A stretch of DNA of 64,000 nt, from NCBI RefSeq assembly GCF_055900595.2, contig NZ_CM148325.1; one strand, written 5' to 3'. A model generated the notes under the pieces. The model worked only from the letters and a program-made list of their open reading frames with translations. It was not told the origin of the DNA and ran no database searches. Positions 8,012 through 60,149 of this stretch are shown here, piece after piece (the stretch's first letter is position 1; each line of letters begins with the position of its first letter). The position numbers and the translations under genes were made by a program.

Positions 8012-8680
8012 TCCTTCCTCAATCTTGAGTAACCCCGTCGTTGAAGGGTTACTCAATTCATCCTGATTATACGCACTGTCATGGTGCAACTGCTTCAAAT
8101 TAAAACTCTGGTCTGACTTCAAATAATTATCATATTATTTATTTGCGTAACGGGATATCAGAAAAAGATATTTAGCCCATTAATTTATTAGGATGTTTAC
8201 ATCGGATTTGTGATTAAGCGTGGTATTATTTATTAGCGAAACGTTTCTCTCTTGATTTTTTTGCGCATTCATCAATTTTTCTTATTTTAAATTTACAATA
8301 CCTTTGGCGATTGACTTCTCTTTGGGGTGATTGATAGCCGTTAACTGACTGTTTTATGAGAAAAAGTGATATAACTTTTTATTCATTGCATAGCAGAAAA
8401 TGTGATATTGCACGCACTATGTAATAACTTCTCCCATTGGCCTGGAACAACTGAACTTATTGAACTATGTTAGAAAATACGTCAGTTTAAGTATCTGCCT
8501 GAACTGGCAAGGTTAAGCACAATGATATATCGGCGCGTATTCCGTTGCATAAGTGTGCAAAAAAAGTGGAAGACGTATCGAGATTTGTGCGTCTGATCGA
8601 GACATGTTTAAAAATGGCTTGCCATAATTAACGTTGTATGTGATAACAGATTTCGGGTTAAACGAGGTACAGTTCTGTTT

Positions 8681-8824
8681 ATGTGTGGCATTTTCAGTAA
8701 AGAAGTCCTGAGTAAACACGTTGACGTTGAATACCGCTTCTCTGCCGAGCCTTATATTGGTGCCTCATGCAGTAATGTGTCAGTTTTATCTATGTTATGC
8801 CTGCGGGCGAAGAAAACAATCTAA
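8681..8824 (+). CDS. yobF: small protein YobF (47 aa)
   Basis: Translated by hand: [47 protein letters not shown]; immediately upstream of cspC; absent from track (under 60 aa). Confidence 0.85.
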
Positions 8825-8836
8825 GGAATTTTTCAA

Positions 8837-9046
8837 ATGGCAAAGATTAAAGGTCAGGTTAAGTGGTTCAACGAGTCTAAAGGTTTTGGCTTCATCACTC
8901 CGGCTGATGGCAGCAAAGACGTGTTCGTACACTTCTCCGCTATCCAGGGTAATGGCTTCAAAACTCTGGCTGAAGGTCAGAACGTTGAGTTCGAAATTCA
9001 GGACGGCCAGAAAGGTCCGGCAGCTGTTAACGTAACAGCTATCTGA
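8837..9046 (+). CDS. cspC: cold-shock-domain protein CspC
   Basis: 69-aa [40 protein letters not shown]..., canonical CSD RNP motifs. Confidence 0.97.
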
Positions 9047-9091
9047 TCGAATCCACTGATCTGAAGTGTGAAGACACTTCAATCTCGCTAT

Positions 9092-9118
9092 AAAGCCTCG
9101 TCGAATGCGAGGCTTTTT
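9092..9118 (+). terminator. intrinsic terminator downstream of cspC
   Basis: stem aaagcctcg / cgaggcttt followed by a 5-T run. Confidence 0.8.
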
Positions 9119-9211
9119 ACTTTGCTTTATCTTCGCTCCTGGCATTCGGATATTTGCCCGCCGCGTGATTCGCGTTACACTTGCGGACTTTAGTATCCTG
9201 CCGGAGTTGTC

Positions 9212-10021: not shown

Positions 10022-10584
10022 CCGTGGAAGTGCGTCCAGAGGATCTGGACGCCGATGCCGATCAGTACCAGCCCGCCGAGAATTTCCGCTTTCTTCCCAA
10101 TAATTGAGCCGATAAAGCGACCAACCATCATCCCTAATGTCGACATAATCAAGGTTGCACAACCAATGGCTAATGCGGTCGCGATAATGTTGACCTGCAG
10201 GAAGGCCAGACCAACCCCCACAGCCATCGCATCCAGGCTGGTGGCAATCGCGGTGGTTACCAGTAGCCAGAAACCGTGTCGACGGCGCGGTTCTTCATCT
10301 TCATCATCTGCACCACGAAAACCCTCGATAATCATTCGCCCACCGAGGAATATCAGCAGCACAAACGCAATCCAGTGATTCCATTCAAGGACAAACCGGC
10401 TGGCTAACATGCCCATTCCCCAGCCGATCAGCGGCGTCAGGGTTTCGACGGCACCAAAAATAAGGCCAGTTCGCAAAGCTTCAGAAAATTTCGGTTTATG
10501 GAGGGTGGCACCTTTACCGATTGATGCAGCAAATGCATCCATCGACATACCAAACGCAAGAAGAACAGTAGCAGTGATATTCAT
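10018..10584 (-). CDS. mntP: manganese efflux pump MntP
   Basis: Track ORF 10018..10638 trimmed to ATG at 10584 ([21 protein letters not shown]...), AGGA Shine-Dalgarno 10 nt upstream; 188 aa. Confidence 0.9.
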
Positions 10585-10699
10585 GACAACGTCCTGACCG
10601 GGGTATCCATAAAACACATCATCGCCCCCAGCAAACATGCATACATGAACAACAAACCGCGATGATTTTCGCGTTCATGCAGGCATAGCGATTGATGTG

Positions 10700-10805
10700 C
10701 ATATGGTCTCGCCTGACTGAAAGTGTTCAGTTCGTACGTGCCACGTTTTGCAACGAGTATGTTGACACGTACATTTCCGGAATCTGGAAATCGGCTACTC
10801 CCCAA
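10700..10805 (-). promoter_or_regulatory. yybP-ykoY family Mn(II) riboswitch aptamer in mntP 5' leader
   Basis: Minus-strand leader carries conserved GGGGAGUAGCC ... GUCAACAUAC ... CAGGCGAGACC blocks typical of the yybP-ykoY motif, upstream of mntP. Confidence 0.7.
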
Positions 10806-11012
10806 ATGAGGGCGCAACATTAACATATTTTTAGAATATAAAACAACTGTTGGGATATATTATTTCAGCAGTTAATTGATAACGATTTTCATTTAGATTT
10901 ATATATCAATGAAACGTTAAAATAAATAACAAATAAGGGATGGGATAATATAGCCTAAGCTATGTCTGATTATTTAAAATACAGCAAACATAGCTTTGGC
11001 TAAATTCATAAC

Positions 11013-25738: not shown

Positions 25739-26320
25739 ATGGCGGTTCAAAAGAATGTTATCAAAGGCATACTGGCAGGTACGTTTGCGCTAATGCTGAG
25801 CGGTTGTGTCACTGTGCCGGACGCCATTAAAGGCAACAGTCCCACGCCGCAACAAGATTTAGTTCGGGTAATGAGTGCGCCGCAGCTGTACGTTGGTCAG
25901 GAGGCACGCTTTGGCGGCAAAGTGGTTGCGGTACAAAACCAGCAAGGGAAAACCCGGCTGGAAATTGCCACCGTACCGCTGGACAGTGGAGCCAGACCGA
26001 CGCTGGGAGAACCTTCTCGCGGTCGTATTTATGCCGATGTGAACGGTTTTCTGGATCCGCTAGATTTTCGTGGACAATTGGTCACGGTAGTTGGACCAAT
26101 CACCGGTGCGGTTGACGGCAAAATCGGCAACACGCCCTATAAATTTATGGTGATGCAGGTAACGGGTTACAAACGTTGGCATTTAACCCAGCAGGTGATT
26201 ATGCCGCCTCAGCCGATTGATCCATGGTTTTATGGCGGTCGTGGCTGGCCCTATGGCTACGGTGGATGGGGCTGGTATAATCCCGGCCCCGCGAGAGTAC
26301 AAACTGTTGTAACTGAATAA
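25739..26320 (+). CDS. yeaY: Slp-family outer-membrane lipoprotein YeaY
   Basis: 193-aa ORF with lipoprotein signal (…LMLSGC). Confidence 0.85.
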
Positions 26321-26524
26321 TTGCTTGTTTTTAAAGAAAAAGAAACAGCGGCTGGTCCGCTGTTTCTGCATTCTTACGGTAAAGATAAAAATAAATAGTG
26401 ACGCGCTTCGCAACCTTTTCGTTGGGTAATTATCAAGCTGGTATGATGAGTTAATATTATGTTAACAGCATGTATATCATTTGGGGTTGCGATGACGACG
26501 AACACGCATTTTAGAGGTGAAGAA

Positions 26525-28210
26525 TTGAAGAAGGTTTGGCTTAACCGTTATCCCGCGGACGTTCCGACGGAGATCAACCCTGACCGTTATCAATCTCTGG
26601 TAGATATGTTTGAGCAGTCGGTCGCGCGCTACGCCGATCAACCCGCGTTTGTGAATATGGGGGAGGTGATGACCTTCCGCAAACTGGAAGAACGCAGTCG
26701 CGCGTTTGCCGCTTATTTGCAACAAGGGTTGGGACTGAAGAAAGGCGATCGCGTTGCGTTGATGATGCCTAATTTATTGCAATATCCGGTGGCGCTGTTT
26801 GGCATTTTGCGTGCCGGGATGATCGTTGTAAACGTTAACCCGTTGTATACCCCGCGTGAGCTGGAGCATCAGCTTAACGATAGCGGCGCATCAGCGATTG
26901 TTATCGTGTCTAATTTTGCCCACACTCTGGAAAAAGTGGTTGATAAAACCGCCGTTCAGCACGTTATTCTGACCCGTATGGGCGATCAGCTATCCACGGC
27001 AAAAGGCACGGTAGTCAACTTCGTTGTTAAATACATCAAGCGTCTGGTGCCGAAATACCATCTTCCAGATGCCATCTCATTTCGCAGCGCACTGCATAAC
27101 GGCTACCGGATGCAGTACGTCAAACCCGAACTGGTGCCAGAAGATTTAGCTTTCCTGCAATATACCGGCGGTACCACTGGTGTGGCGAAGGGCGCGATGC
27201 TGACTCACCGCAATATGCTGGCGAATCTGGAACAAGTTAACGCGACTTATGGGCCGCTGTTGCATCCGGGCAAAGAGCTGGTGGTGACGGCACTGCCGCT
27301 GTATCACATTTTTGCTCTGACCATTAACTGCCTGCTGTTTATTGAACTGGGTGGGCAGAACCTGCTTATCACTAACCCGCGCGATATTCCGGGGTTGGTA
27401 AAAGAGTTAGCGAAATATCCGTTTACCGCGATAACCGGCGTTAACACCTTGTTCAATGCGTTGCTGAACAATAAAGAGTTCCAGCAGCTGGATTTCTCCA
27501 GTCTGCATCTTTCTGCAGGCGGTGGTATGCCTGTTCAACAAGTGGTGGCTGAACGTTGGGTGAAACTGACCGGACAGTATCTGCTGGAAGGTTATGGCCT
27601 GACCGAGTGTGCGCCGCTGGTCAGCGTTAACCCGTATGATATTGATTATCATAGTGGTAGCATCGGTTTGCCGGTGCCGTCGACGGAAGCCAAACTGGTG
27701 GATGATGATGATAATGAAGTACCACCGGGTCAACCGGGTGAGCTTTGTGTCAAAGGACCGCAGGTGATGCTGGGTTACTGGCAGCGTCCGGATGCTACCG
27801 ATGAAATCATCAAAAATGGCTGGTTACACACCGGCGATATCGCGGTGATGGATGAAGAAGGATTCCTGCGCATTGTCGATCGTAAAAAAGACATGATTCT
27901 GGTTTCCGGTTTTAATGTCTATCCCAACGAAATTGAAGATGTCGTCATGCAGCATCCTGGCGTACAGGAAGTCGCAGCTGTTGGCGTACCTTCCGGCTCC
28001 AGTGGTGAAGCGGTGAAAATCTTCGTAGTGAAAAAAGATCCATCGCTTACCGAAGAGTCACTGGTGACCTTTTGCCGCCGTCAGCTCACGGGCTACAAAG
28101 TACCGAAGCTGGTGGAGTTTCGTGATGAGTTACCGAAATCTAACGTCGGAAAAATTTTGCGACGAGAATTACGTGACGAAGCGCGCGGCAAAGTGGACAA
28201 TAAAGCCTGA
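26525..28210 (+). CDS. fadD: long-chain fatty acid-CoA ligase FadD
   Basis: Track ORF 26459..28210 trimmed to TTG at 26525 so the product begins (M)[19 protein letters not shown]..., 561 aa; AMP-binding motif [12 protein letters not shown]. Confidence 0.93.
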
Positions 28211-28227
28211 GCGTTAAGTCAGTCGTC

Positions 28228-28255
28228 AGACGCCGGTTAATCCGGCGTTTTTTTT
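28228..28255 (+). terminator. intrinsic terminator downstream of fadD
   Basis: stem cgccgg / ccggcg with TTAAT loop followed by an 8-T run. Confidence 0.8.
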
Positions 28256-28279
28256 GACGCCCACTAAAGAGAATACAAT

Positions 28280-29407
28280 TTGAATTACCAAATGATTACC
28301 ACGGACGATGCGCTGGCTTCTTTGTGTGAAGCCGTCCGTGCCTTTCCGGCGATAGCCCTGGATACTGAATTTGTTCGTACGCGCACCTATTACCCGCAGC
28401 TGGGTCTAATTCAACTTTTTGATGGTGAGCATCTGGCGCTAATTGATCCTCTCGGGATCTCCGACTGGTCACCGCTGAAAGCGATACTGCGCGATCAGTC
28501 CATCACAAAATTTCTCCATGCGGGCAGTGAAGATCTGGAAGTGTTCCTCAATGTCTTTGGCGAATTACCACAACCCTTGATTGACACGCAAATCCTTGCT
28601 GCCTTCTGCGGACGCCCGATGTCATGGGGTTTCGCTTCCATGGTGGAAGAGTATTCCGGCGTTACGCTGGACAAGAGTGAATCGCGCACCGACTGGCTGG
28701 CCAGACCGCTGACCGAACGTCAGTGTGAATACGCAGCGGCGGATGTCTGGTATCTGTTACCGATCACCGCAAAGCTTATGGTAGAAACGGAGGCCTCCGG
28801 CTGGCTACCTGCGGCGCTGGATGAATGCCGCCTGATGCAAATGCGTCGTCAGGAAGTCGTTGCACCGGAAGATGCCTGGCGTGATATCACCAATGCCTGG
28901 CAGTTACGCACACGCCAACTGGCCTGTCTGCAACTGTTAGCCGACTGGCGACTGCGCAAGGCGCGGGAGCGCGATCTGGCGGTGAACTTTGTCGTGCGTG
29001 AAGAGCATTTGTGGTCGGTAGCGCGTTATATGCCGGGAAGTTTAGGCGAACTGGACAGCCTGGGCTTATCCGGTAGCGAAATCCGCTTTCACGGTAAAAC
29101 GCTGCTGGCGCTGGTGGAAAAAGCGCAGACATTGCCGGAAGAGGCCTTACCGCAGCCGATGCTTAACCTGATGGACATGCCGGGTTATCGTAAAGCGTTT
29201 AAAGCGATTAAGTCGCTGATTACTGACGTGAGCGAAACACACAAGATCAGCGCCGAATTGCTGGCATCGCGTCGGCAAATCAACCAGCTGCTGAACTGGC
29301 ACTGGAAACTGAAACCGCAGAACAATTTGCCGGAGCTGATTTCCGGCTGGCGTGGTGAGCTGATGGCGGAAGCATTACACAATTTATTGCAGGAATATCC
29401 ACAGTAA
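28280..29407 (+). CDS. rnd: ribonuclease D
   Basis: 375-aa ORF starting at TTG (rnd is known to use a UUG start); (M)NYQMITTDDALASLCEAVRAFPAIALDTEFVRTRTYYPQLGLIQL... Confidence 0.92.
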   Translation: MNYQMITTDDALASLCEAVRAFPAIALDTEFVRTRTYYPQLGLIQLFDGEHLALIDPLGISDWSPLKAILRDQSITKFLHAGSEDLEVFLNVFGELPQPLIDTQILAAFCGRPMSWGFASMVEEYSGVTLDKSESRTDWLARPLTERQCEYAAADVWYLLPITAKLMVETEASGWLPAALDECRLMQMRRQEVVAPEDAWRDITNAWQLRTRQLACLQLLADWRLRKARERDLAVNFVVREEHLWSVARYMPGSLGELDSLGLSGSEIRFHGKTLLALVEKAQTLPEEALPQPMLNLMDMPGYRKAFKAIKSLITDVSETHKISAELLASRRQINQLLNWHWKLKPQNNLPELISGWRGELMAEALHNLLQEYPQ

Positions 29408-29413
29408 AATCTT

Positions 29414-29455
29414 CCGAAGCCGGACTGGGCGCGCTCAGCGCCACATCCGGCTTCG
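29414..29455. other. nested inverted repeat between convergent rnd and yeaX
   Basis: 11-bp perfect outer stem ccgaagccgga / tccggcttcgg enclosing a second GC-rich palindrome (ggcgcgctcagcgcc); no adjacent U-run. Confidence 0.5.
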
Positions 29456-29460
29456 GCAAA

Positions 29461-30426
29461 CTACAAATCCAACACCAGGCGTTTACCCTTCGCGCGTGAA
29501 CAACAGATCAACATACTTTGCTGGCTGGCACGCTCTTCATCGCTAAAATACTGATCCCGATGGTCAGCTTCACCTTCCAGTATTGCCGTTTCGCAGGTTC
29601 CGCATACCCCTTCACGACATAAACATTCCACTTTAGCTGCTTTACTATTTTCAATAACCTGCAAAATAGTCATCTCTTCCGGCACCACAAACTCTTTTCC
29701 GGAACGGGCAAGCACCAGCGTAAATGCATCGCCGGTTTTGTCTTCGATAGCAAATTGCTCAAAGTGCAGCGTATCGGTGGCGATGTCCAGACGCGCAGCT
29801 TCACTTCTTACCGCCTCATTTAGCGCCTCGGGGCCACAGGTATAAACATGTGTGCCAGGTTCGATATCCGCCAATAATCGCGCTAATTCCAGTCGTGTTC
29901 CGGTTGATGAATGATGCAAATGGACTTTCTCGGCCTGCGGATGCTGGACTAGCTCATCACGAAATGCGCAACTTTCTGGATTTCGCGAGCAGTAATGTAA
30001 CTGCCAGTCGACGTCGCTGTATTGCAACTCTGCCATGTGCGACAGGAAAGGGGTGATACCAATACCGCCCGCGATAAACAGATGCTTTCTGGCCGAGGGA
30101 ATTAGCGCAAACAGATTATTAGGCGTCGAAATGGTCAACCGATCGCCTGCTTTCACCTGCTGATGCAAAAAGCGCGAACCACCGCGCGAGTTTTCTTCCA
30201 GCCGAACGGCAATCTGATAACGAGACGTATCGAGTGGCGAACTCAGCAGTGAGTACGCATTGCTGTACTGGTTATCACCATCGCTCATCTGCACAATGAT
30301 GTGACTTCCTCCAGTAAACGCAGGTAATGGTTTGCCATCGGTTGCCACCAGCGTGAAGCGTTTCACCTGTTCGGTAAGGGGGTCAACCTGACTCACCTGT
30401 ACTTCAAACATTTGGTAGTTTGACAT
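29461..30426 (-). CDS. yeaX: carnitine monooxygenase reductase subunit (YeaX/CntB)
   Basis: 321-aa ORF; C-terminal plant-type [2Fe-2S] Cys cluster (CREGVCGTCE) and flavin reductase-like N-terminus. Confidence 0.9.
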   Translation of the reverse strand: MSNYQMFEVQVSQVDPLTEQVKRFTLVATDGKPLPAFTGGSHIIVQMSDGDNQYSNAYSLLSSPLDTSRYQIAVRLEENSRGGSRFLHQQVKAGDRLTISTPNNLFALIPSARKHLFIAGGIGITPFLSHMAELQYSDVDWQLHYCSRNPESCAFRDELVQHPQAEKVHLHHSSTGTRLELARLLADIEPGTHVYTCGPEALNEAVRSEAARLDIATDTLHFEQFAIEDKTGDAFTLVLARSGKEFVVPEEMTILQVIENSKAAKVECLCREGVCGTCETAILEGEADHRDQYFSDEERASQQSMLICCSRAKGKRLVLDL

Positions 30427-31637: not shown

Positions 31638-33248
31638 TCAGTTGTCGCCTTTGAATACGGTTCCAGCAGGAAGCACTGGCGCTTTTCCCGGGGCTTCAAC
31701 CGGTGTCTGCGGGAGATAATGTTCAACTTGATGAGCTGGAATGTCGGCGTAATCCTGTTTCAGCCAGCGAATAAATCCGCCGACTTTCACCAGTAAAATG
31801 GCGAGGAAGGGAAGGGCAGTGAGGACGACGGTAGTTTTCATTGTTTCCAGCGAAGCACCGGTAAACAAGATGGAAAGCGGGATCAGAGTGATCACTACGC
31901 ACCAGAACAGACGCAGCCCACGGTCAGGATCGTCACCTTCCTGGAGATTACGCGTGCTGGTCGCCGCCATGGTGTAAGCCACCGCATCCATATGCGAGGC
32001 GAGGAAGATAATCATCACGCCCAGATAGGCCGCGAGGAACAATTTACCGGCTGGTAGAGACATCAGAACTTGCTGCACAGCTGTTTCGCCGCCCAGTGTT
32101 TCCAGCACCTGTGGGACGTTGATTACGCCATTGATAAACTGATGAATGGCATAGCTTTCCATTACGCCGAAGAAGAACCAGCAACCGACGGTGCTGCCGA
32201 GGATCAGTCCCCAGATAACTTCTTTAATCTTACGACCGCGCGAAACTCGGGTGACAAACATTGCTACGCCAGGGGTGTATGAGATCCACCACAGCCAGTA
32301 GAAAACGGTCCAGTTGCGGGTAAATGAACCATCGCCAAGCGGATCGGTGAATAAGCTCATTTGCAGGAAGTTTTGCGTGGTCAGGCCGATGGCATTGATG
32401 ATGCTGTTGGTAATAAATTCGGTTGGACCGACAATCAGCACCAGTAATGGCAGCAGGAATGCGCCCCAGCCAACCATTTTGCTTAGACGTTGCAAACCGT
32501 TGTTGATACCAATCCACGAGCTTAGGCAAAAAATGCCGCCGGAAAGCAGGATCACAAATGCCTGTACGGTAAAGTTATCGGGTAAACCGGTCAGCGCGGA
32601 AAGCCCACGGGTAAAGGTTGCTGCGGTGACAACAAGGGAAATGGTCAGTGCGCCGACAGTGGCGATCAGGAACATCAAATCGACCAGTTTCCCCCACGGG
32701 CCTTGCGGGCGAACGCCGGTAATAGCAGCAATAATGCCGGAAAGGCTCAGCCCTTTATTTTTCCGCACATGAAAGTGATAAGCCATGATTAATGAGGCCA
32801 GCGTATAAGTTGCCCAGGCGCTGATGCCCCAGTGGAAGAAGGAGTAGGGAACGCTAAATTCGAGTGCCTGTTGTGAACGCGGTGCGATATTTAATCCAGG
32901 CGTTTGATAATAATAGGCCCATTCAGCAACCCCCCAATAAAGCGTAGAAGAACCTAAACCTGCACAAATAAACATAAACAGCCAGGAGAGCGTGCTGTAT
33001 TCCGGTTTTCCTTCGCCAAGACGAATATTGCCGTATTTACTGGTGGCTAAATAAATCACCAGTCCCATTGCCAGCAAAACCAATACCTGTACGGCGGAAC
33101 CTAACGTACGCGTAACAAAAGTGTATATTGCGTTGGCCGCGTCGGCCGATTGTTGTGGGAAAAGGCTTAATGCAGCTGCGATGAAAAGAATGGCCACCAG
33201 GCTGATGCTTATCAACGGCACATCTTTTTTCTTAACATTGCTCATCAT
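31638..33248 (-). CDS. yeaV: BCCT-family transporter YeaV
   Basis: 536-aa multi-TM ORF with BCCT-like N-terminus; start taken from track, true start may be internal. Confidence 0.82.
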
Positions 33249-33497
33249 GAGTCATCTCCTGGGCATAAAAGCCCGTCTCTGGCTTTTGCCAGTTGTAATT
33301 ATTTGCAGGGTATGAGTTGTATGTTGTGTTTAACAAATTGATTATTTACATGTTACATAAATTAAACAATTAAGAATACGGAAAGCCATAAAACACGAAA
33401 CGGAAACAATAAAAGGTGAAATGACGCAGGTTATTTACTGCAAAGAACGAATAAAAAAACCGCGTCAGTGACGCGGTTCAAATAAACTGGTTTGACC

Positions 33498-37754: not shown

Positions 37755-38780
37755 TCAGGAATGTAGCGCTGAATGCGCGACAAAAGGTGTTTTCTGTTTG
37801 TGTTTTTTCTCCTGATACATCGCGATATCGGCAGCATGCAGGGCGCTGTCTGCATCGGTCGTTTCAGGATCGACTTCTACTATGCCAAGACTGGCACCAG
37901 GATAATACAAATCAACATCACCTAAGTGATATTCTCCGCGTATTTGCTGTTGAATACGTTCTCGCAGCGATGGAATATCCGCATTCTCATTGTTCAGTGA
38001 AACAACCAAAAACTCATCACCGCCGAGACGACCAATAACTTCGCCATTTTGCTGGAGCGTATTAAGGCGCTCGCCAACCTGAATAAGAAACAGATCGCCA
38101 CTATTATGACCAAAACGATCATTGATTAATTTGAAGTTATCCAGATCGATAAATGCGATCATTATCTTATGGTTAAGATGCCTCGCAAGAGAAAACAGCG
38201 TCGTCAGGTTTTCAAAAATCGCCCGCCGATTCGGTAGCCCGGTTAACGAGTCGGTATACGATTGCGCAATCAGTGCGGCATTTGCTTCGCGCAGCTGTTC
38301 AACCAGCGCCTCTTTTTGAATATATTGTGCAATCAGTCCGGCGAATAGCTGTAAAACCTGTTCCGCGCGTTCACTCCACTGGCGCTTCTCACTGCTGGCG
38401 GCGCAAAGTGTGCCATAGAATGATCCATCCGGTAAGTGAATTGGCGTGCTCAGAAATGTGGTGATGCCAAGATTTCGTGCCGCAACACAGTCGCCCCAAC
38501 GGTCGGGGACTTCATCGCTGAAAAAGCAGTTTTCATCAATGGCGCGTTTGCATAACGAGTAATCCCACGAGACGGTAAAATTCTCCGGGATGTGCATTTT
38601 CTGGCTATTACGGGCAAACATTATATGCTGCAGGCGCGCTTCGACATCCACTTTGGTCAGGTAGGTTGACTCCATATCAGTGACCATTTCCAGCATCTCC
38701 AGAAGCTGTCGGACCAGACTTTCCAGTGACTGTTCTTTGGCAAGGGATTGCGAGACGCGGGCGATAATCTGATCTGACAC
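37755..38780 (-). CDS. dgcP: diguanylate cyclase DgcP (YeaP), GAF plus GGDEF
   Basis: Track ORF 37755..38909 trimmed to GTG at 38780 ((M)SDQIIARVSQSLAKEQ...); GGDEF motif RLGGDEF present; 341 aa. Confidence 0.88.
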   Translation of the reverse strand: MSDQIIARVSQSLAKEQSLESLVRQLLEMLEMVTDMESTYLTKVDVEARLQHIMFARNSQKMHIPENFTVSWDYSLCKRAIDENCFFSDEVPDRWGDCVAARNLGITTFLSTPIHLPDGSFYGTLCAASSEKRQWSERAEQVLQLFAGLIAQYIQKEALVEQLREANAALIAQSYTDSLTGLPNRRAIFENLTTLFSLARHLNHKIMIAFIDLDNFKLINDRFGHNSGDLFLIQVGERLNTLQQNGEVIGRLGGDEFLVVSLNNENADIPSLRERIQQQIRGEYHLGDVDLYYPGASLGIVEVDPETTDADSALHAADIAMYQEKKHKQKTPFVAHSALHS

Positions 38781-38962
38781 GAAACAACTCCAGGATACGG
38801 CGGGTAAATGCTGATTATTTAATCTTTGCAGGCATGATAAAACATCATCAACAAAGATGAAACAAGACGTAATATGTTTTGAGTGAATGTAATAAAAATA
38901 GTGCTGCAAAACAAAACGATACCGCGATACTCTAAGCTTGGATAAATATGTGAGATCAATAA

Positions 38963-44634: not shown

Positions 44635-46083
44635 TTAAATATGATGAATAATCACTTTGTTGCCCCCCTCGCTTTTCGCTTCGCGTAAGGCTTTATCTGC
44701 TTCCGTCATGACAAGCGAGATATTACGCGTGTCACCCGTTGAAAAAACCGTGCCAATACTGATGGTCATTTGTTCAGGAACATCATATCTGTTACTAAAA
44801 CCGGTCAGGAGTTCGACATTTTTACGCATACGTTCCGCAATGATTTTTGCCTGGGCACTATTGAGTTCGGTAAATAGCAAGCCAAACACCTCACCCTCCA
44901 GTCGCGCTAAAATATCATCGGGGCGGATGCTTTGCTGGATAATATCGACAATTGAAACCAGCACTTTATCACCCACACGATGTCCCCATTGGGCATTGAT
45001 GCGCTTGAACTGATTAATATCAACCAGCATGACACAAAAGTCCTTAACAACAGGTCGCGACAATAATGACTCTACGCTGTTGAAAAAGTAGCGCCGATTA
45101 TAAATATTGGTCAGTACATCATGAACTGCCAGTTTGCTGGAGAGTTGCAGTTCCTGAAAAATGTTATAAATCAGAAAAGACACAACAAACAGTTTACTGG
45201 AAACTTCAATCCCGCGACTGATATACCAGATGGTGTAATTATACTCATCCAGAGTCAGTAGAAGTAAGTTGCAGCATAGCGATGCCAGACATAATAATGC
45301 TATTAACGGCCATAGTTCGCTGGCTAATCGTGTACGCATGATAATAAAGAACAGTAAAAATGCCCACAGACAAACCAATATTTTTGTATAGTTGATTCCC
45401 CAGGTCGCAGTATGGTTGTCCGGACAGTAATCGACGACATACAAAGAATAGTCAGCGTTATAACTGCTCAGATTGTGTGCCAGAAGGGGAAATACTAAAA
45501 AAGGGATCAGCGTCAGTAACAGGATCCCCGTTTTTTTCTTATTGTTGTTAAGAATGTTGTCTTTACCATAACAAAAGAGCGCCAGCGAGGTTAAACAAAT
45601 AAAACTGAGTTGGCGGAAAATATAGAAAATAGAAACATCATTCGACTTTGTCTGGATCAGTGTACTGCCGTTGATTGGTTTATGGATAATTACAATGGTT
45701 TCAACTAAATAGATAAGGCCACTTAAAAATGCAAGGCTTAAAATGAGTGTTGGTAAAATTTGTTTGTTAGTGAAATATTTCATCAACATGAAAAGAAAAA
45801 TGACGGCGTTAAGGAAGAACAAAGCCACAACAACCATCAGGTAATTCATCTGTGGAATGAGTTTTACATTCGTGTTTTCGTTATATAAGGTGGTGATGCA
45901 AAATAAAATTAACGTCAGCAATAAGCTGAAAATAAAAAAGCCTTGAGCTTTTAATTTTTGTGTACCCATAGAAACCATAAAAAGGAGAGCAATGTGAGTG
46001 CTGGATTTTATTGATGGCAGAGATATATGGTTTTGACCAAGATCAATTTTCGGTAACGATGCAAAATAATTAAAGAATAACAC
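44635..46083 (-). CDS. cdgI: GGDEF-domain membrane protein CdgI (YeaI)
   Basis: 482-aa track ORF from GTG; multi-TM N-terminal region and C-terminal GGDEF-like domain (RLEGEVFG); strongly AT-rich; true start uncertain. Confidence 0.8.
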   Translation of the reverse strand: MLFFNYFASLPKIDLGQNHISLPSIKSSTHIALLFMVSMGTQKLKAQGFFIFSLLLTLILFCITTLYNENTNVKLIPQMNYLMVVVALFFLNAVIFLFMLMKYFTNKQILPTLILSLAFLSGLIYLVETIVIIHKPINGSTLIQTKSNDVSIFYIFRQLSFICLTSLALFCYGKDNILNNNKKKTGILLLTLIPFLVFPLLAHNLSSYNADYSLYVVDYCPDNHTATWGINYTKILVCLWAFLLFFIIMRTRLASELWPLIALLCLASLCCNLLLLTLDEYNYTIWYISRGIEVSSKLFVVSFLIYNIFQELQLSSKLAVHDVLTNIYNRRYFFNSVESLLSRPVVKDFCVMLVDINQFKRINAQWGHRVGDKVLVSIVDIIQQSIRPDDILARLEGEVFGLLFTELNSAQAKIIAERMRKNVELLTGFSNRYDVPEQMTISIGTVFSTGDTRNISLVMTEADKALREAKSEGGNKVIIHHI

Positions 46084-46255
46084 GGGTAAATACGTGTTGA
46101 ACGAAGCATTTTTCCGAATGATTGTTTTCTGGAACTAAATTGTGTAAAGGTTGTGCTGTTATATTTAAAGCGATTGTAAGTTAATGTATATAATAAATGA
46201 GATGATTTACAGTGTGCTAAAAAACAGCCAGGCGACGATGACCCGGCTGATAGTT

Positions 46256-54795: not shown

Positions 54796-54901
54796 ATGAG
54801 TTGTCTAGTATTTAAGCCTGTTATTAAGGGAGGGCAAATAGACTTGTTCGGACGTCGTGTTTTAGCTGCAAGTAGGTTAAATGCAACACTGACAAGTATT
54901 A

Positions 54902-54938
54902 TCTGGCCTACAATGTCATTGAGGAAATGTAGGCCAGA
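54902..54938. repeat. 11-bp perfect inverted repeat in the yeaC-pncA junction
   Basis: tctggcctaca ... (15-nt loop) ... tgtaggccaga; no adjacent U-run on either strand. Confidence 0.6.
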
Positions 54939-54955
54939 GATGAATCCAACTAATA

Positions 54956-55597
54956 TTACTCCTGCGTCTCTTCCCAGTCTGCAAGCGTATATAGCGTTGC
55001 CCCAGCTGCTGACATCTCCATAAACGCGTGCGCACTGTCCTGTGGCTGGATATTCACGCCACGACAACCATCGGTAATCACATTAACCTTATAACCTAAC
55101 TGTAACGCGTCCAGCACGGTAAACTTCACGCAATAGTCAGTAGCCAGGCCCATAATGATCAATTCATCGATTTCATGATCGCGTAACCAGTCATCGAGCG
55201 TGGTTTTCTGCCGACGGCCGTTATCAAAAAAGGCACTGTAACTGTCAACTAAAGGATTTTCGCCTTTATGGAACACCGCTGCGATCGCTTTTTGGTTCAG
55301 TAACGGATGTAATTGTGCGCCTTCACTGTTCTGCACACAGTGATCTGGCCAGAAGGTTTGTGGCAAACCGTCGATTTGGCCTGGCGTATAAGGCTCTACA
55401 CCGTGCTGACTGGCAAAACTGCCGTGATTCGCCGGGTGCCAGTCTTGACTGGCGATAACCGCTTCACCGCGTGACTGGCACCAGTCAATCAGGCGGTTAG
55501 CGACATCCACCGTACTGTCACCTTCCGGCACGGCGAGCGCGCCACCAGCACAGAAATCATTTTGTAAATCGACCAGTAACAGGGCGCGAGGGGGCAT
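54956..55597 (-). CDS. pncA: nicotinamidase/pyrazinamidase PncA
   Basis: Track ORF 54956..55615 trimmed to ATG at 55597 (MPPRALLLVDLQNDFCAGGALAV...). Confidence 0.93.
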   Translation of the reverse strand: MPPRALLLVDLQNDFCAGGALAVPEGDSTVDVANRLIDWCQSRGEAVIASQDWHPANHGSFASQHGVEPYTPGQIDGLPQTFWPDHCVQNSEGAQLHPLLNQKAIAAVFHKGENPLVDSYSAFFDNGRRQKTTLDDWLRDHEIDELIIMGLATDYCVKFTVLDALQLGYKVNVITDGCRGVNIQPQDSAHAFMEMSAAGATLYTLADWEETQE

Positions 55598-55607
55598 TGC
55601 AGTCTCC

Positions 55608-56624
55608 TTAATCATCCGGCGTCAGTTCGCCGCGCAGGTTTTGGCTCATGGCCTTGCGAATGGTTTCAGTATCCAGTTCCTGGCTAAGCAGGTAATGCAG
55701 TTTGGTTAGCGTGGCTTCTACAGTCATATCTGCACCGCCAATAACGCCGGCATGGGCGAGGGCGTTACCGGTGGCATAACCCCCCATGTTCACTTTACCG
55801 GACATACATTGTGTCAGGTTGACTACCACAATTCCGCGATCGCTGGCTTCTTGTAATTCTTGCAGGAAGGCTTTGTTTTGTGGCGCATTACCCACGCCAT
55901 ATGAGCGCAGAATCAATGCTTTCACCGGTTGGCGCAGAAAATTGCGCACGACGTCAGCAGAAATCCCTGGATAAATCGTCACTACGCCAATTGGTTGTGG
56001 GGTGATTGGATGAACGATCAATTCCCCTTCACCGTGCGGGGCGGGTGGCGTATTCAAACGACGAATATGGATACCTGCTTCCAGTAACGGAGGAAGGTTT
56101 GGAGAGGCAAACGCATCAAAACCATCGGCATGGGCTTTGGTGGTACGGTTGCCACGATAAAGTCGATTATTAAAAAAGAGAGTTACTTCGTTGATAGGAT
56201 AATTCGCCGCAACGTACAACGCATTCAGCAGATTAATTTGTCCGTCAGAGCGTAACTCAGCCAGCGGGATTTGTGACCCTGTCACAATGACCGGTTTACC
56301 GAGATTCTCGAGCATGAACGACAGCGCAGAGGCGGTATACGCCATCGTGTCGGTGCCGTGCAGAATGACAAAACCATCATAGTCGTCATAATGCGCTTTA
56401 ATATCTTCAGCAATATGCTGCCAGTCTTCTGGCGTCATATCTGAAGAGTCCATCAGCGGCGTATATTCATGAATGGTGAAATCTGGCATCTCCGGGCGAT
56501 GGAATTCCGGCATCAGCGCCAGTTGGCGTTGTAGATGACCTGACACCGGAATATAACCCTGCTCGGAACGCTGCATCCCGATGGTCCCGCCCGTGTAGGC
56601 GACGTAAATTGATTTCTTTTGCAT
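55608..56624 (-). CDS. ansA: cytoplasmic L-asparaginase 1 (AnsA)
   Basis: 338-aa ORF MQKKSIYVAYTGGTIGMQRSEQGYIPVSGH...; start 10 nt upstream of pncA. Confidence 0.95.
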   Translation of the reverse strand: MQKKSIYVAYTGGTIGMQRSEQGYIPVSGHLQRQLALMPEFHRPEMPDFTIHEYTPLMDSSDMTPEDWQHIAEDIKAHYDDYDGFVILHGTDTMAYTASALSFMLENLGKPVIVTGSQIPLAELRSDGQINLLNALYVAANYPINEVTLFFNNRLYRGNRTTKAHADGFDAFASPNLPPLLEAGIHIRRLNTPPAPHGEGELIVHPITPQPIGVVTIYPGISADVVRNFLRQPVKALILRSYGVGNAPQNKAFLQELQEASDRGIVVVNLTQCMSGKVNMGGYATGNALAHAGVIGGADMTVEATLTKLHYLLSQELDTETIRKAMSQNLRGELTPDD

Positions 56625-56755
56625 GATATTGATATGAATGATATCGAAAGAGCAAAAGTATATACGTGAGGGGCAGCGAGCGCACCTGGATACTCTGTGG
56701 ATATGAGAAAAGTCCGGCAGAACGGAGGGATTAGTGTCCCGCCGGAGAAAAGTGG

Positions 56756-57478
56756 TTAATCCTGCAACGCATAGGTTACGGTGGTGACTACGCGTACCGT
56801 TTTATTAATCGCCGTAGGATCATCTTCATCACTGCCACTGGCGAAGATCTGGAACACGCCTTGTGAGGCATCGCTAATTGACCCCACCTGGCTACCTGAG
56901 TCCGTTGCAAATTGTAATGCTGCGTTGCGTGCATCTTTGGTGGCGGCGGCAATCATCTCAGCGCGCAGTGCGCCAATACCATTAAAGCGATAGGCGACTT
57001 TGCTCTCAGCGATAGCGCCCTCCGTAGCGACTTGCAGTTCGTTTAATTTCGCGACGACTTTTTCGACAGCAGCAACATTATGGGTTTTTATCGTCACTGA
57101 CCCGTCTGCGTTATAGCGTGGCATTGTGGGATCATCTTTCAGATAAAAGGAATCTGTTCGCTTGCTTGTCCATTGGCCCAGGGTTATCTCTTTCTCGTTA
57201 ATCCCCTGAGCATTGAGTTCGGCAACAATTTTTTTCTGCGCGTCTTCCAGTTTCGGGAACAGTTCGCCGGGAATATTACCCTTAAAGTTAATCGCAATTG
57301 TTAATTCTGCCGTATCTGCGCGAACTTCTTTTTCAGAAAGCCCACGCACATTTACATAACGGTTATTGGTTTTCAAATGTTTAACACCATCGCCAACAAA
57401 ATAACCACAGGCGCTAATCCCCAGTCCGAGGACGATAGCGGCAATTAAAGAGGGGGCCTTATTCACTGATGACTCCAT
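56756..57478 (-). CDS. SIMPL/DUF541-like putative lipoprotein
   Basis: C-terminal ~240 codons of track ORF 56756..57925; ATG at 57478 (MESSVNK...) or, better supported, GTG at 57466 with GGAG 6 nt upstream giving (M)NKAPSLIAAIVLGLGISAC lipobox signal; family call from recalled SIMPL architecture. Confidence 0.55.
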   Translation of the reverse strand: MESSVNKAPSLIAAIVLGLGISACGYFVGDGVKHLKTNNRYVNVRGLSEKEVRADTAELTIAINFKGNIPGELFPKLEDAQKKIVAELNAQGINEKEITLGQWTSKRTDSFYLKDDPTMPRYNADGSVTIKTHNVAAVEKVVAKLNELQVATEGAIAESKVAYRFNGIGALRAEMIAAATKDARNAALQFATDSGSQVGSISDASQGVFQIFASGSDEDDPTAINKTVRVVTTVTYALQD

Positions 57479-57717
57479 ATCAGATGCTAAATGAGCAAGG
57501 GAATGTAGTGGAGAGAGGGAGTGAAAGACAGTCCGATTCAGGAGTGTGGCCGACAGCATATCGGCCACATTTTTGTGCACAGAAAACCCCCAGCTAGGCT
57601 GGGGGTTCCGGAAAGCTTTCAGCTTTGAGCCAGTTATTAAAACCCCTTTTGATTTGTTAAAACACCTTGCGGTCTGGCAACTGCAAGTGTCAAACAAGAA
57701 ATCAAAAGGGGGTCCCA

Positions 57718-58176
57718 ATGGGGGACGAAAAGAGCTTAGCGCACACCCGCTGGAACTGTAAATATCACATAGTTTTTGCGCCGAAATACCGAAGACTGGC
57801 GTTTTACGGAGAGAAGCGTAGGGCGATAGGCAGTATTTTGAGAAAGCTGTGTGAGTGGAAAAGCGTACGGATTCTGGAAGCAGAGTGCTGCGCAGATCAT
57901 ATCCATATGCTTGTGGAAATCCCACCCAAAATGAGCGTATCCGGCTTTATGGGATATCTGAAAGGGAAAAGCAGTCTGATGCTTTACGAGCAGTTTGGGG
58001 ATTTGAAATTCAAATACAGAAACAGGGAGTTCTGGTGCCGAGGGTACTATGTCGATACGGTGGGTAAGAACACGGCGAAGATACAGGACTACATAAAGCA
58101 CCAGCTTGAAGAGGATAAAATGGGGGAGCAGTTATCGATTCCATATCCGGGCAGCCCGTTTACGGGCCGTAAGTAA
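57718..58176 (+). CDS. tnpA: IS200 transposase TnpA (HUH/Y1 family)
   Basis: Track ORF 57667..58176 trimmed to ATG at 57718: MGDEKSLAHTRWNCKYHIVFAPKYRR...HIHMLVEIPPK...; HUH motif (HIHML) and catalytic-Tyr region recognisable. Confidence 0.92.
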   Translation: MGDEKSLAHTRWNCKYHIVFAPKYRRLAFYGEKRRAIGSILRKLCEWKSVRILEAECCADHIHMLVEIPPKMSVSGFMGYLKGKSSLMLYEQFGDLKFKYRNREFWCRGYYVDTVGKNTAKIQDYIKHQLEEDKMGEQLSIPYPGSPFTGRK

Positions 58177-58252
58177 CGAAGTTGAATGCAAATGTCAGAT
58201 CGTATGCGCCTGTTAGGGCGCGGCTGGTAACAGAGCCTTACAGGCGCATTTG

Positions 58253-58276
58253 AAAAACCTCCGGCTATGCCGGAGG
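58253..58276 (-). terminator. intrinsic terminator 16 nt downstream of sppA stop
   Basis: minus-strand stem cctccgg / ccggagg with 5-nt loop followed by UUUUU; may lie inside the IS200 right end. Confidence 0.6.
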
Positions 58277-58292
58277 ATATTTATTGCAGGAT

Positions 58293-60149
58293 TTAACGCA
58301 CGTTGGCGCAGGTCAGGCAAAACGCATAACGGTTTTGTGGGTCGTTAAACGCTGCCAGCTTGTCGCTTTCACTTTTAACGGTAGAGGCTACCGAGGCCAG
58401 CGGTGCAGGTAACATGGCCTGGAACGCATCTGGCAACATTGCCCGGACAGAACCAGACATATTGTCCATCACTTTGTCGAAGAAGGTCGGTTCATCAACG
58501 TAGTATTCCAGATGCCACTGTTTCACTTTTGCCAGCTCTGCCGCTTTGGCAACCGCATCATCGAAATCCCCGAGACTATCGACCAGCCCGTTAGCTTTTG
58601 CATCCTGACCGGTCCAGACGTGGCCCTGGGCGATTTTATCAATCTGCTCCGGCGTCGAATGACGCGCATCAGCAACCAGCGTGATAAAGCGTTTATAGCC
58701 ATTCTCAATGCTTAACTGCATCATCTGCTGCGCTTCCGGCGGCAGTGCCTTGGTGATAGAAACATCCGCTAGCGGTGAAGTTGAGACGCCATCGGTATGA
58801 ACACCAATCGAATCCAAACTATTTTCTACGGTAGTGATCACGCCGAAGATACCGATAGAACCGGTCAGGGTGCTGGGGTTAGCCACAATGTAATTAGCTG
58901 GCGTGGAAATCCAGTAACCACCAGATGCCGCCATGCCGCCCATCGATACAACCACCGGCTTACCCGCTGCCCTGGCTGCTGCCAGTTCAGCGCGAATCAC
59001 TTCAGAGGCGGTAACGCTGCCGCCAGGGCTATTAACACGCAGAACAATCGCTTTCACTTTCGGGTCAAGGCGAGCGTCGCGGATTTGTGCCGCAGTGGTA
59101 TCACCGCCAACATTCCCCTGAGTTTCCTCGCCATCCATAATTGCGCCATTAGCGAAGACGACACCGATACTGTCACCGGTATCTGCCGGCGTTTTCAATG
59201 CGTAATCGTAATAACTGATGGCGCGATAATTTTTATCAGTCTTACTCCAGCCGAACTCTTTGGTCAGAGCTTTTTCGATTTCGGCACTTGATGCCAGTGC
59301 ATCGACCAGCTTGTTTTCCAGCGCATATTTCGCGGTATCGCCACCGGTTTTGGTTAAACCCTTAAGCAACCCTTGCGCACCAGGGAATACCTGCTGAGCA
59401 GGGATCTGCCGGTTAGCGGCAACAGTATTCAGATAGTTTTGCCACAGCTCACCGATCCAGCGGCTGTCAGCTTCGCGGGCTGCCGGTGACATATCATCAC
59501 GAATAAACGGTTCAACGGCAGATTTATACGTACCCACGCGGAACACATGGGTGGAAACTTTCAGCTTATCCAGCAACGATTTGTAGTACAGGCCGTTGGT
59601 AGCAAAACCGTGCAGATCCACCACGCCTTGTGGAGATAGCCAAATTTTGTTGGCGAAACTGGCGAGATAATATTGCCCCTGGCTGTAGTTCTCGCCTATG
59701 GCATAAACTGGTTTCCCGCTGTCACGAAACTCTTTCAGGGCTTTGCCGATGTACTGCATAGACGGCTGGTCGCCGCCTGCGAAGTTTTTCAGATCCATCA
59801 CGATACCGGTGATATTGCGGTCGTCCTTCGCCTGGCGAATGGTGTTGACGATATCAAACAGTGAGTTTTCCTGCAGACGATCGGAACTGGCACCAAGCAG
59901 CTGGCGGCTTAGCTTACTAAACCGCTGAGAACTGTCGGGTTTATCGACGATTACACCAGATATGTCCAGCAGCAGCGCGCCACGACTGGCCGTTTCTTTC
60001 GAATCACCACCACTGACCTGCATCCAAATCCCCACACCAACCAGTACGAGAAAAATAAAGAACAGGTTAAGTACCATTTCACGGACGAAATTCAGCAGAC
60101 GCCACGTCCATTTAAAAAATCCGGCAATAAATCGCCAAAGGGTTCGCAT
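58293..60149 (-). CDS. sppA: signal peptide peptidase SppA (protease IV)
   Basis: Track ORF 58293..60161 trimmed to ATG at 60149 ([38 protein letters not shown]...); 618 aa. Confidence 0.95.

Follow-up and report, generated by a model that had tools for sequence, protein, structure and literature searches.

Non-ATG start codons of fadD, rnd and dgcP in an Escherichia coli chromosome segment, and the over-long frames of a longest-ORF track

Introduction

Where do the genes fadD, rnd and dgcP begin? The question is posed by a 64,000-nucleotide (nt) stretch of contig NZ_CM148325.1 (RefSeq assembly GCF_055900595.2; hereafter the window, meaning the whole stretch of DNA analysed), for which a program-made track lists the mechanical open reading frames (ORFs) 26459..28210, opening at an ATG and 583 amino acids (aa) long, 28280..29407 (TTG, 375 aa) and 37755..38909 (TTG, 384 aa). 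An earlier note on this DNA, made from the letters alone, claimed that fadD starts at TTG 26525, rnd at TTG 28280 and dgcP, on the minus strand, at GTG 38780. All three equal the starts in the curated record of E. coli MG1655, with products of 561, 375 and 341 aa; curated N-termini were the check that the note had itself named as able to overturn it, and the MG1655 record has exactly the three starts given. Very probably, then, the adjacent housekeeping genes fadD and rnd initiate at UUG and dgcP, 10 kb away, at GUG, and the longer ORFs of the track are an artefact of the ORF rule.

The window is a segment of the E. coli chromosome. Its region 26300-29500, with the genes yeaY, fadD, rnd and yeaX, was matched in 5,425 of 5,426 complete E. 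coli genomes, and the window as a whole aligns in reverse orientation to about 1.852-1.916 Mb of MG1655 at about 97% identity and to strain Z0117EC0005 at 99.6-99.98% identity. Curated MG1655 annotations and those of PGAP, the NCBI automated annotation pipeline (Z0117EC0005), were transferred onto window coordinates via BLAST alignments, and PGAP start calls were sampled in six E. coli genomes. For the fadD and rnd starts, we compared 80 genomes of different Enterobacterales species. Shine-Dalgarno strength is given throughout as predicted binding to the anti-Shine-Dalgarno sequence of 16S rRNA, in kcal/mol, and public protein searches covered about 15 billion proteins, with occurrences counted as contigs.

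Results

The fadD start at TTG 26525

The gene for long-chain acyl-CoA synthetase, fadD, has three in-frame start candidates, ATG 26459, ATG 26492 and TTG 26525. The elements that define the last of these are as follows.

26525..28210, plus strand: fadD coding sequence (CDS), TTG start, 561 aa, as in MG1655 and in six of six PGAP genomes
26513..26519, plus strand: fadD Shine-Dalgarno AGAGGTG, separated from the TTG by 5 nt; at -7.1 kcal/mol, its binding is stronger than at either of the other two candidates

Among the 80 genomes, the columns of AGAGGTG are the most conserved of the fadD leader. At the aligned position, 75 genomes have TTG and five have GTG; ATG, CTN and TTA do not occur. Synonymous leucine codons, which would be open to an internal leucine, are thus absent, as expected of a genuine start. 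Column entropy switches exactly at the TTG, being irregular before it and, from there on, taking a pattern in which positions 1 and 2 are near-invariant and position 3 is free. Five of the leaders contain no other in-frame start, and in Chimaeribacter a stop lies six codons upstream of the TTG. Moreover, EcoGene counts FadD among the proteins whose N-terminus has been sequenced, and the true start lies 11 codons 3' of the competing ATG (PMC1805508).

As a separate observation, this exact FadD occurs in public databases at 561, 572 and 583 aa, on at least 1000 contigs each, the longest form starting inside the -10 hexamer described below.

The fadD promoter and the ATG that heads the track ORF

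The furthest upstream of the candidates, ATG 26459, lies among the following promoter elements.

26351..26367, plus strand: FadR operator site 2 of fadD, matching the fadD-FadR-site2 oligo (PMC3460868), inside the yeaY-distal hairpin 26341-26367
26397..26412, plus strand: CRP site of the fadD promoter, AGTGAcgcgctTCGCA, matching the validated fadD-CRP-site oligo (PMC3460868)
26436..26452, plus strand: FadR operator site 1 of fadD, AGCTGGTATGATGAGTT, placed by motif position
26455..26461, plus strand: inferred -10 hexamer TATTAT (26455-26460), overlapped by the track ATG (26459-26461)

The promoter has the same operators, CRP site, Shine-Dalgarno and TTG as the FadR/CRP/ArcA-controlled fadD of E. 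coli described previously (Black et al. 1992; Feng & Cronan 2012, PMC3460868). FadR sites 1 and 2 are 68 bp apart, in agreement with PMC3460868, and the distal site has been placed about 100 bp upstream of the fadD transcription start (PMC9329746). The 60-nt leader is nearly identical to that of MG1655; the conserved upstream ATG and its motif, to which we return below, fall outside the curated description.

One reading of the track is that its longest ORFs are the true genes, with fadD running from ATG 26459 (583 aa) and dgcP from TTG 38909 (384 aa), and we give this reading next to no credence. Both frames are indeed open, and the 583-aa FadD is found on at least 1000 public contigs. Nevertheless, ATG 26459 is not a start codon: it lies within the -10 hexamer and upstream of the 5' end of the fadD mRNA, the published transcription start being near 26465, since a distal FadR site at about -100 fits only the placement of the -10 element at 26455-26460. 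An alternative -10 element from a promoter scan, TATCAT at 26475-26480, was rejected as the fadD promoter because neither the 60-nt leader nor the FadR site positions given in the literature are compatible with it. No Shine-Dalgarno accompanies ATG 26459 (predicted binding -2.8 kcal/mol), and in many genera the codon is out of frame or preceded by a stop; in Enterobacter-type leaders, the -10 position reads TATAAT, the ATG is out of frame and a stop occurs at -24.

The dgcP start at GTG 38780

For dgcP, the corresponding elements lie on the minus strand.

37755..38780, minus strand: dgcP CDS, GTG start, 341 aa, on which MG1655 and PGAP (all genomes sampled) agree
38788..38791, minus strand: dgcP Shine-Dalgarno GGAG with a 7-nt spacer to the GTG, -5.9 kcal/mol
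38907..38909, minus strand: TTG heading the 384-aa track ORF, not a start codon, -3.0 kcal/mol

TTG 38909 is the only in-frame start codon of dgcP other than GTG 38780. The 129-nt extension that it would add has a GC content of 34%, compared with 48% in the CDS, and a 384-aa DgcP was found nowhere among the roughly 15 billion public proteins, whereas the 341-aa form occurs on 226 contigs. The supplement of TRAINSPOTTER (PMC13245402) lists the DgcP peptides MSDQIIAR and SDQIIAR, together with the entry 'Ribo-RET, INRI' (Ribo-RET denoting retapamulin ribosome profiling), at a GTG at NC_000913:1877715, a position that maps to 38780 of the window; neither this supplement nor that of Salmonella riboproteogenomics has an entry for fadD or rnd. 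The N-terminal peptides of DgcP thus begin at the GTG, and the dgcP start is settled. With this, the reading of the longest ORFs as the genes is effectively refuted for both fadD and dgcP.

The rnd start at TTG 28280

For rnd, the track ORF and the curated MG1655 gene begin at the same codon, and the competing call is that of PGAP.

28280..29407, plus strand: rnd CDS (RNase D), TTG start, 375 aa, curated in MG1655
28266..28271, plus strand: weak Shine-Dalgarno-like AAAGAG with an 8-nt spacer to the TTG, -2.9 kcal/mol
28292..28294, plus strand: ATG taken as the rnd start by PGAP (371 aa), in all likelihood codon 5, an internal Met

The frame is closed five codons upstream of the TTG by a TAA (28265-28267), which leaves TTG 28280 and ATG 28292 as the only possible starts of rnd. 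The aligned start codon is TTG in 76 of the 80 genomes and GTG in three, with Edwardsiella having an ATG one codon upstream; stops occur two to five codons upstream of the start in many of these genomes. An AAGAGA motif is conserved at the rnd spacing across the compared genomes, and coding periodicity, seen as third-position variability, begins exactly at the TTG.

Were rnd to start at ATG 28292, TTG 28280 would be part of an untranslated leader. In favour of this, ATG is preferred as a start codon, all six of the E. coli genomes sampled have the call in PGAP, and the 371-aa form of this allele is found on 590 contigs as opposed to five for the 375-aa form. The comparison across genomes points the other way. 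The codon aligned with ATG 28292 is ATG in 56 of 80 genomes and TTG in 16, and in the remaining eight it is incompetent for initiation (CTG in four; ATA, TTT, TAC and TTA in one each). The protein sequence N-Y-Q at residues 2-4 is maintained, variation falling mainly on third codon positions, while the sequence 5' of the TTG is unconstrained. Furthermore, ATG 28292 lacks a Shine-Dalgarno (+0.4 compared with -2.9 kcal/mol for the TTG), and UUG is the start in curated MG1655 as well as in the experiments cited, PMC7769764 citing it from Zhang & Deutscher. We therefore regard a start at ATG 28292 as very improbable. On these comparative data, it is the PGAP start, four codons late, that looks like the error.

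The rnd leader and sroD

Upstream of the TTG, the rnd leader contains a predicted structural element that is shared with a small RNA (sRNA).

28230..28255, plus strand: GC-rich hairpin (28230-28248) followed by T8 (28248-28255), resembling a terminator of fadD and located in the rnd leader, from a scan for terminator-like elements
28169..28254, plus strand: sroD sRNA, extending from the final 42 nt of fadD through the terminator hairpin to the U-run (Rfam RF00370, 115 bits, 86 of 86 positions, full length)

The hairpin folds with z = -3.1 and is kept in 19 diverse genomes, where four of its ten pairs show compensatory changes; in the Yersiniaceae, a GU-rich run takes the place of the U-run. 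In its account of rnd, PMC7769764, citing Zhang & Deutscher 1992, has the rnd mRNA depend on a U-rich translational enhancer, a U-run needed for translation though not for mRNA abundance. Judged by its sequence, the leader at 28230-28282 appears to have the architecture of that enhancer, namely a GC hairpin, a U-run, a Shine-Dalgarno and the UUG. Compared with the E. coli rnd of Zhang & Deutscher (1988, 1989, 1992), we see the same gene and architecture and nothing different in kind, and the 75 nt upstream of rnd differ from MG1655 at one base.

The match to sroD (Rfam RF00370; Vogel et al. 2003), which is encoded in the 3' end of fadD (PMC5874903), is full length, and its hairpin and U-run are common to the rnd leader. 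The hairpin and U8 of sroD are the same element as the cited U-rich enhancer of rnd, and sroD could be either a 3' fragment of fadD or a prematurely terminated rnd leader.

Over-long ORFs and the chance expectation

The earlier note attributed the over-long ORFs to the rule of the track, and this attribution is borne out by shuffling and by Shine-Dalgarno strength, as given below. Long track ORFs arise because the rule opens a frame at whichever ATG, GTG or TTG comes first after a stop. The note put the overshooting genes at about 20, which is too low, for 31 of the 69 annotated CDS overshoot (27 of 61 that are at least 60 aa long, and 25 of 53 that are at least 100 aa long). Its range of 2-60 codons is exact for the genes shared with K-12 (selD 2, dgcJ 60); one non-K-12 gene, encoding a SIMPL-domain protein, overshoots by 153 codons. 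For the three genes in question, the overshoot is 22 codons in fadD, none in rnd and 43 in dgcP.

As a chance model, the upstream sequence of each gene was shuffled, which gave 32.9±4.4 overshooting genes compared with the 31 observed, and a median overshoot of 14 codons compared with 16. In random sequence, a start codon would precede the first upstream stop about half the time, and overshoot is what one would expect. In 26 of the 31 overshooting genes, the annotated start has stronger anti-Shine-Dalgarno binding than the longest-ORF start (means of -5.7 and -1.9 kcal/mol, respectively). Among N-terminally verified E. coli genes, the first possible start is used in 62.6% (PMC1805508). Set beside this known mis-assignment by longest ORFs in prokaryotic gene finding, the 45% overshoot in the window, 37% in the verified E. 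coli set (PMC1805508) and about 48% at random amount to no difference. The overshoot is a mechanical artefact of the ORF rule, is not above chance and has no biology behind it.

A possible second fadD start at ATG 26492

Between the promoter-embedded ATG and the TTG lies the third fadD candidate.

26483..26494, plus strand: Shine-Dalgarno-like GGGG (26483-26486), 5-nt spacer and in-frame ATG (26492-26494), which may be a secondary initiation site and would then yield 572 aa

This ATG is 11 codons (33 nt) upstream of the TTG, at about +28 of the mRNA, and its GGGG has a predicted binding of -5.4 kcal/mol. It raises the possibility that fadD has two starts, with AUG 26492 used in vivo besides UUG 26525, either to make a 572-aa FadD or to load ribosomes for the UUG or tune its use. 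We consider this reading plausible, though somewhat short of probable.

Much of the comparative evidence is in its favour. Of 77 unique sequences, 67 have the ATG, from the Enterobacteriaceae, Erwiniaceae and Pectobacteriaceae as well as Serratia and some Yersinia, and a GAGG or GGGG 5-8 nt upstream of it is kept even where the flanks diverge. Predicted binding of this motif reaches -4 kcal/mol or better in 57 of the 60 unique leaders, compared with 41% of shuffles of the same composition and 16% of all the window's ATG triplets; of the ten leaders without the ATG, seven have a weaker motif. Against this, the ATG is absent from ten leaders, mostly of Yersiniaceae and Edwardsiella, and in Chimaeribacter it has shifted to another frame and a stop precedes the TTG. 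Codon periodicity across the extension is faint (codons -10 and -8 only), and the peptide is variable beyond MTTN. The interval from ATG to TTG is free of in-frame stops in 51 of 51 unique leaders; however, we rejected frame-openness as evidence for the 11-codon extension. The counts of 0 in-frame stops and 12 and 89 in the other frames are uninformative because the ATGA and Shine-Dalgarno motifs themselves create stops in the other frames and because the sequences are related, so that the test is confounded by both the Shine-Dalgarno and genome relatedness.

Two genome-wide screens, from 2007 and 2016, flagged this ATG, which stands outside the curated annotation; we found no dedicated study of it. 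In the first, by the predictor Hon-yaku (2007; PMC1805508), the ATG scored 0.663 compared with 0.013 for the verified site, and a multi-start gene was proposed. The second, by tetracycline ribosome profiling (TetRP; PMC4909307), counted five new starts of known genes and lists in its Table S5 an 'alt-N' (new) entry for fadD at -33, with a TetRP value of 4.04 and a value of 0 in chloramphenicol ribosome profiling (CmRP). That entry is single and low, values of tens to hundreds being typical in the supplementary tables of PMC4909307, and fadD is repressed under the growth conditions used for TetRP; fadD is also missing from the re-mapped starts of Table S2 in the same paper. A 572-aa FadD is widely annotated, yet no peptide from the extension is present in the TRAINSPOTTER (PMC13245402) or Salmonella riboproteogenomics supplements, and the verified N-terminus of fadD is at the TTG. 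In comparison with in-frame upstream starts mapped by TetRP and Ribo-RET (PMC4909307; bioRxiv 10.1101/520783), fadD -33 likewise combines a start codon with a Shine-Dalgarno-like motif and an unbroken frame, but the annotated fadD UUG is N-terminally verified, which makes fadD a dual-start gene at most, and a candidate one.

The conserved C/A-rich block of the leader may instead act as a translational enhancer for the UUG, of a type reviewed in PMC7769764. Two further explanations for the conserved block were rejected. Nucleotides 33-43 of the sRNA GcvB (MG1655 gcvB) pair perfectly, over 11 nt, with 26500-26510, GAACACGCAUU; this pairing was set aside as probable chance because the segment is variable and the duplex energy unremarkable (33 of 500 shuffles equalled it). 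RNA structure likewise fails to account for the block, the 106-nt leader being less stable than its shuffles (z = +1.5).

On balance, it is possible, though slightly less likely than not, that ATG 26492 is a real and selected initiation site. It does not displace TTG 26525 as the principal and verified start of fadD.

A parallel exists outside the window. The same two studies (PMC4909307 Table S5; PMC1805508 Table 6) flag an in-frame start 33 nt upstream of iclR, which is also controlled by FadR.

Non-ATG starts across the window

The three non-ATG starts named in the earlier note are correct, but its list is incomplete, as nine more occur in the window: GTG starts in mgrB, manX, sdaA, nudL, yoaA, leuE, mipA and the SIMPL-domain gene, and the TTG of K-12 yeaV. 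Start-codon usage in the window (ATG 57, GTG 9, TTG 3) is the ordinary E. coli mix. We gave no weight to the adjacency of two TTG-start genes, fadD and rnd, since a TTG usage of about 3% predicts a few adjacent pairs per genome.

Several points weigh against the UUG assignments, beyond the PGAP calls and contig counts for rnd given above. Evidence from N-terminal sequencing of fadD and rnd reaches us second-hand, via citing papers (the originals being Black et al. 1992 and Zhang & Deutscher 1988-1992). With a conserved in-frame ATG 33 nt upstream and its TetRP signal, the TTG of fadD is possibly not its sole start. Lastly, the selective reason for the weak start codons, proposed below, is read from their conservation.

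Other features of the window

Three features lie between sppA and ansA, within a region (54800-58300) from which the K-12 ydjE-ydjL sugar-acid cluster, situated between pncA and yeaC, is absent.

56756-57466: SIMPL-domain gene, GTG start
57585-57708: match to the Hfq-binding RNA STnc490, 146 bits
57718-58176: IS200 transposase

At the 5' end of yeaV (33121-33343, minus strand), about 223 bp of the window, including the yeaV ATG 33248 and its upstream region, are lacking in MG1655. Because of these missing bases, K-12 yeaV is shorter (481 aa with a TTG start, compared with 536 aa in the window). The region is polymorphic, being full in 2,925 of 5,426 genomes and deleted in others, such as K-12 and ATCC 8739. 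For cdgI (44635-46109, minus strand), the start is ATG 46109 (491 aa) in MG1655 and ATG 45978 (447 aa) in PGAP.

A manganese riboswitch aptamer of mntP at 10715-10811 (minus strand) scores 39.1 bits, below the Rfam gathering score of 45, and was missed by the default scan. Between this aptamer and the mntP start, PGAP places a hypothetical ORF of 40 aa (10581-10702, minus strand) that is unannotated in MG1655. In the yobF-cspC region (8662-9121, plus strand), there is an Rfam match to the cspA thermoregulator at 136 bits; the gene is named cspE by PGAP and cspC by MG1655.

Discussion

The initiator tRNA decodes UUG and GUG, but initiation at these codons is less efficient than at AUG, and initiation factor 3 (IF3) discriminates against them. 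Replacement of the rnd UUG by AUG, in the 1989 work of Zhang and Deutscher, is said to have raised RNase D about ten-fold. In all three genes, a Shine-Dalgarno would set the UUG or GUG in the ribosomal P site for decoding by the initiator tRNA. In fadD, this would be done by AGAGGUG 5 nt upstream of the UUG, and in dgcP by GGAG 7 nt upstream of the GUG. In rnd, AAAGAG 8 nt upstream would position the UUG, presumably helped by the upstream hairpin and U8.

The three non-ATG starts are already curated in MG1655 or published, and there is nothing new in kind about them. What the present analysis adds is the depth of TTG conservation, the mis-start of rnd in PGAP, the co-conservation of the upstream ATG and its motif in fadD and a chance model for ORF overshoot; none of these is new in kind either.

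For practical purposes, the gene starts given in the earlier note are trustworthy, and a longest-ORF track sets the start too far upstream in about 45% of genes, as chance predicts. The mis-start of rnd in RefSeq PGAP records appears to be a correctable error, one that is propagating through protein databases. The conserved AUG in the fadD leader offers a cheap and testable candidate for dual initiation. Across the Enterobacterales, fadD and rnd retain TTG or GTG with essentially no gain of ATG, which, as far as an alignment can tell, implies selection for weak initiation and hence for modest or low expression. The TTG codons of fadD and rnd, never ATG except in the rnd of Edwardsiella, where an ATG stands one codon upstream, would then illustrate cleanly how selection can favour a weak start codon.

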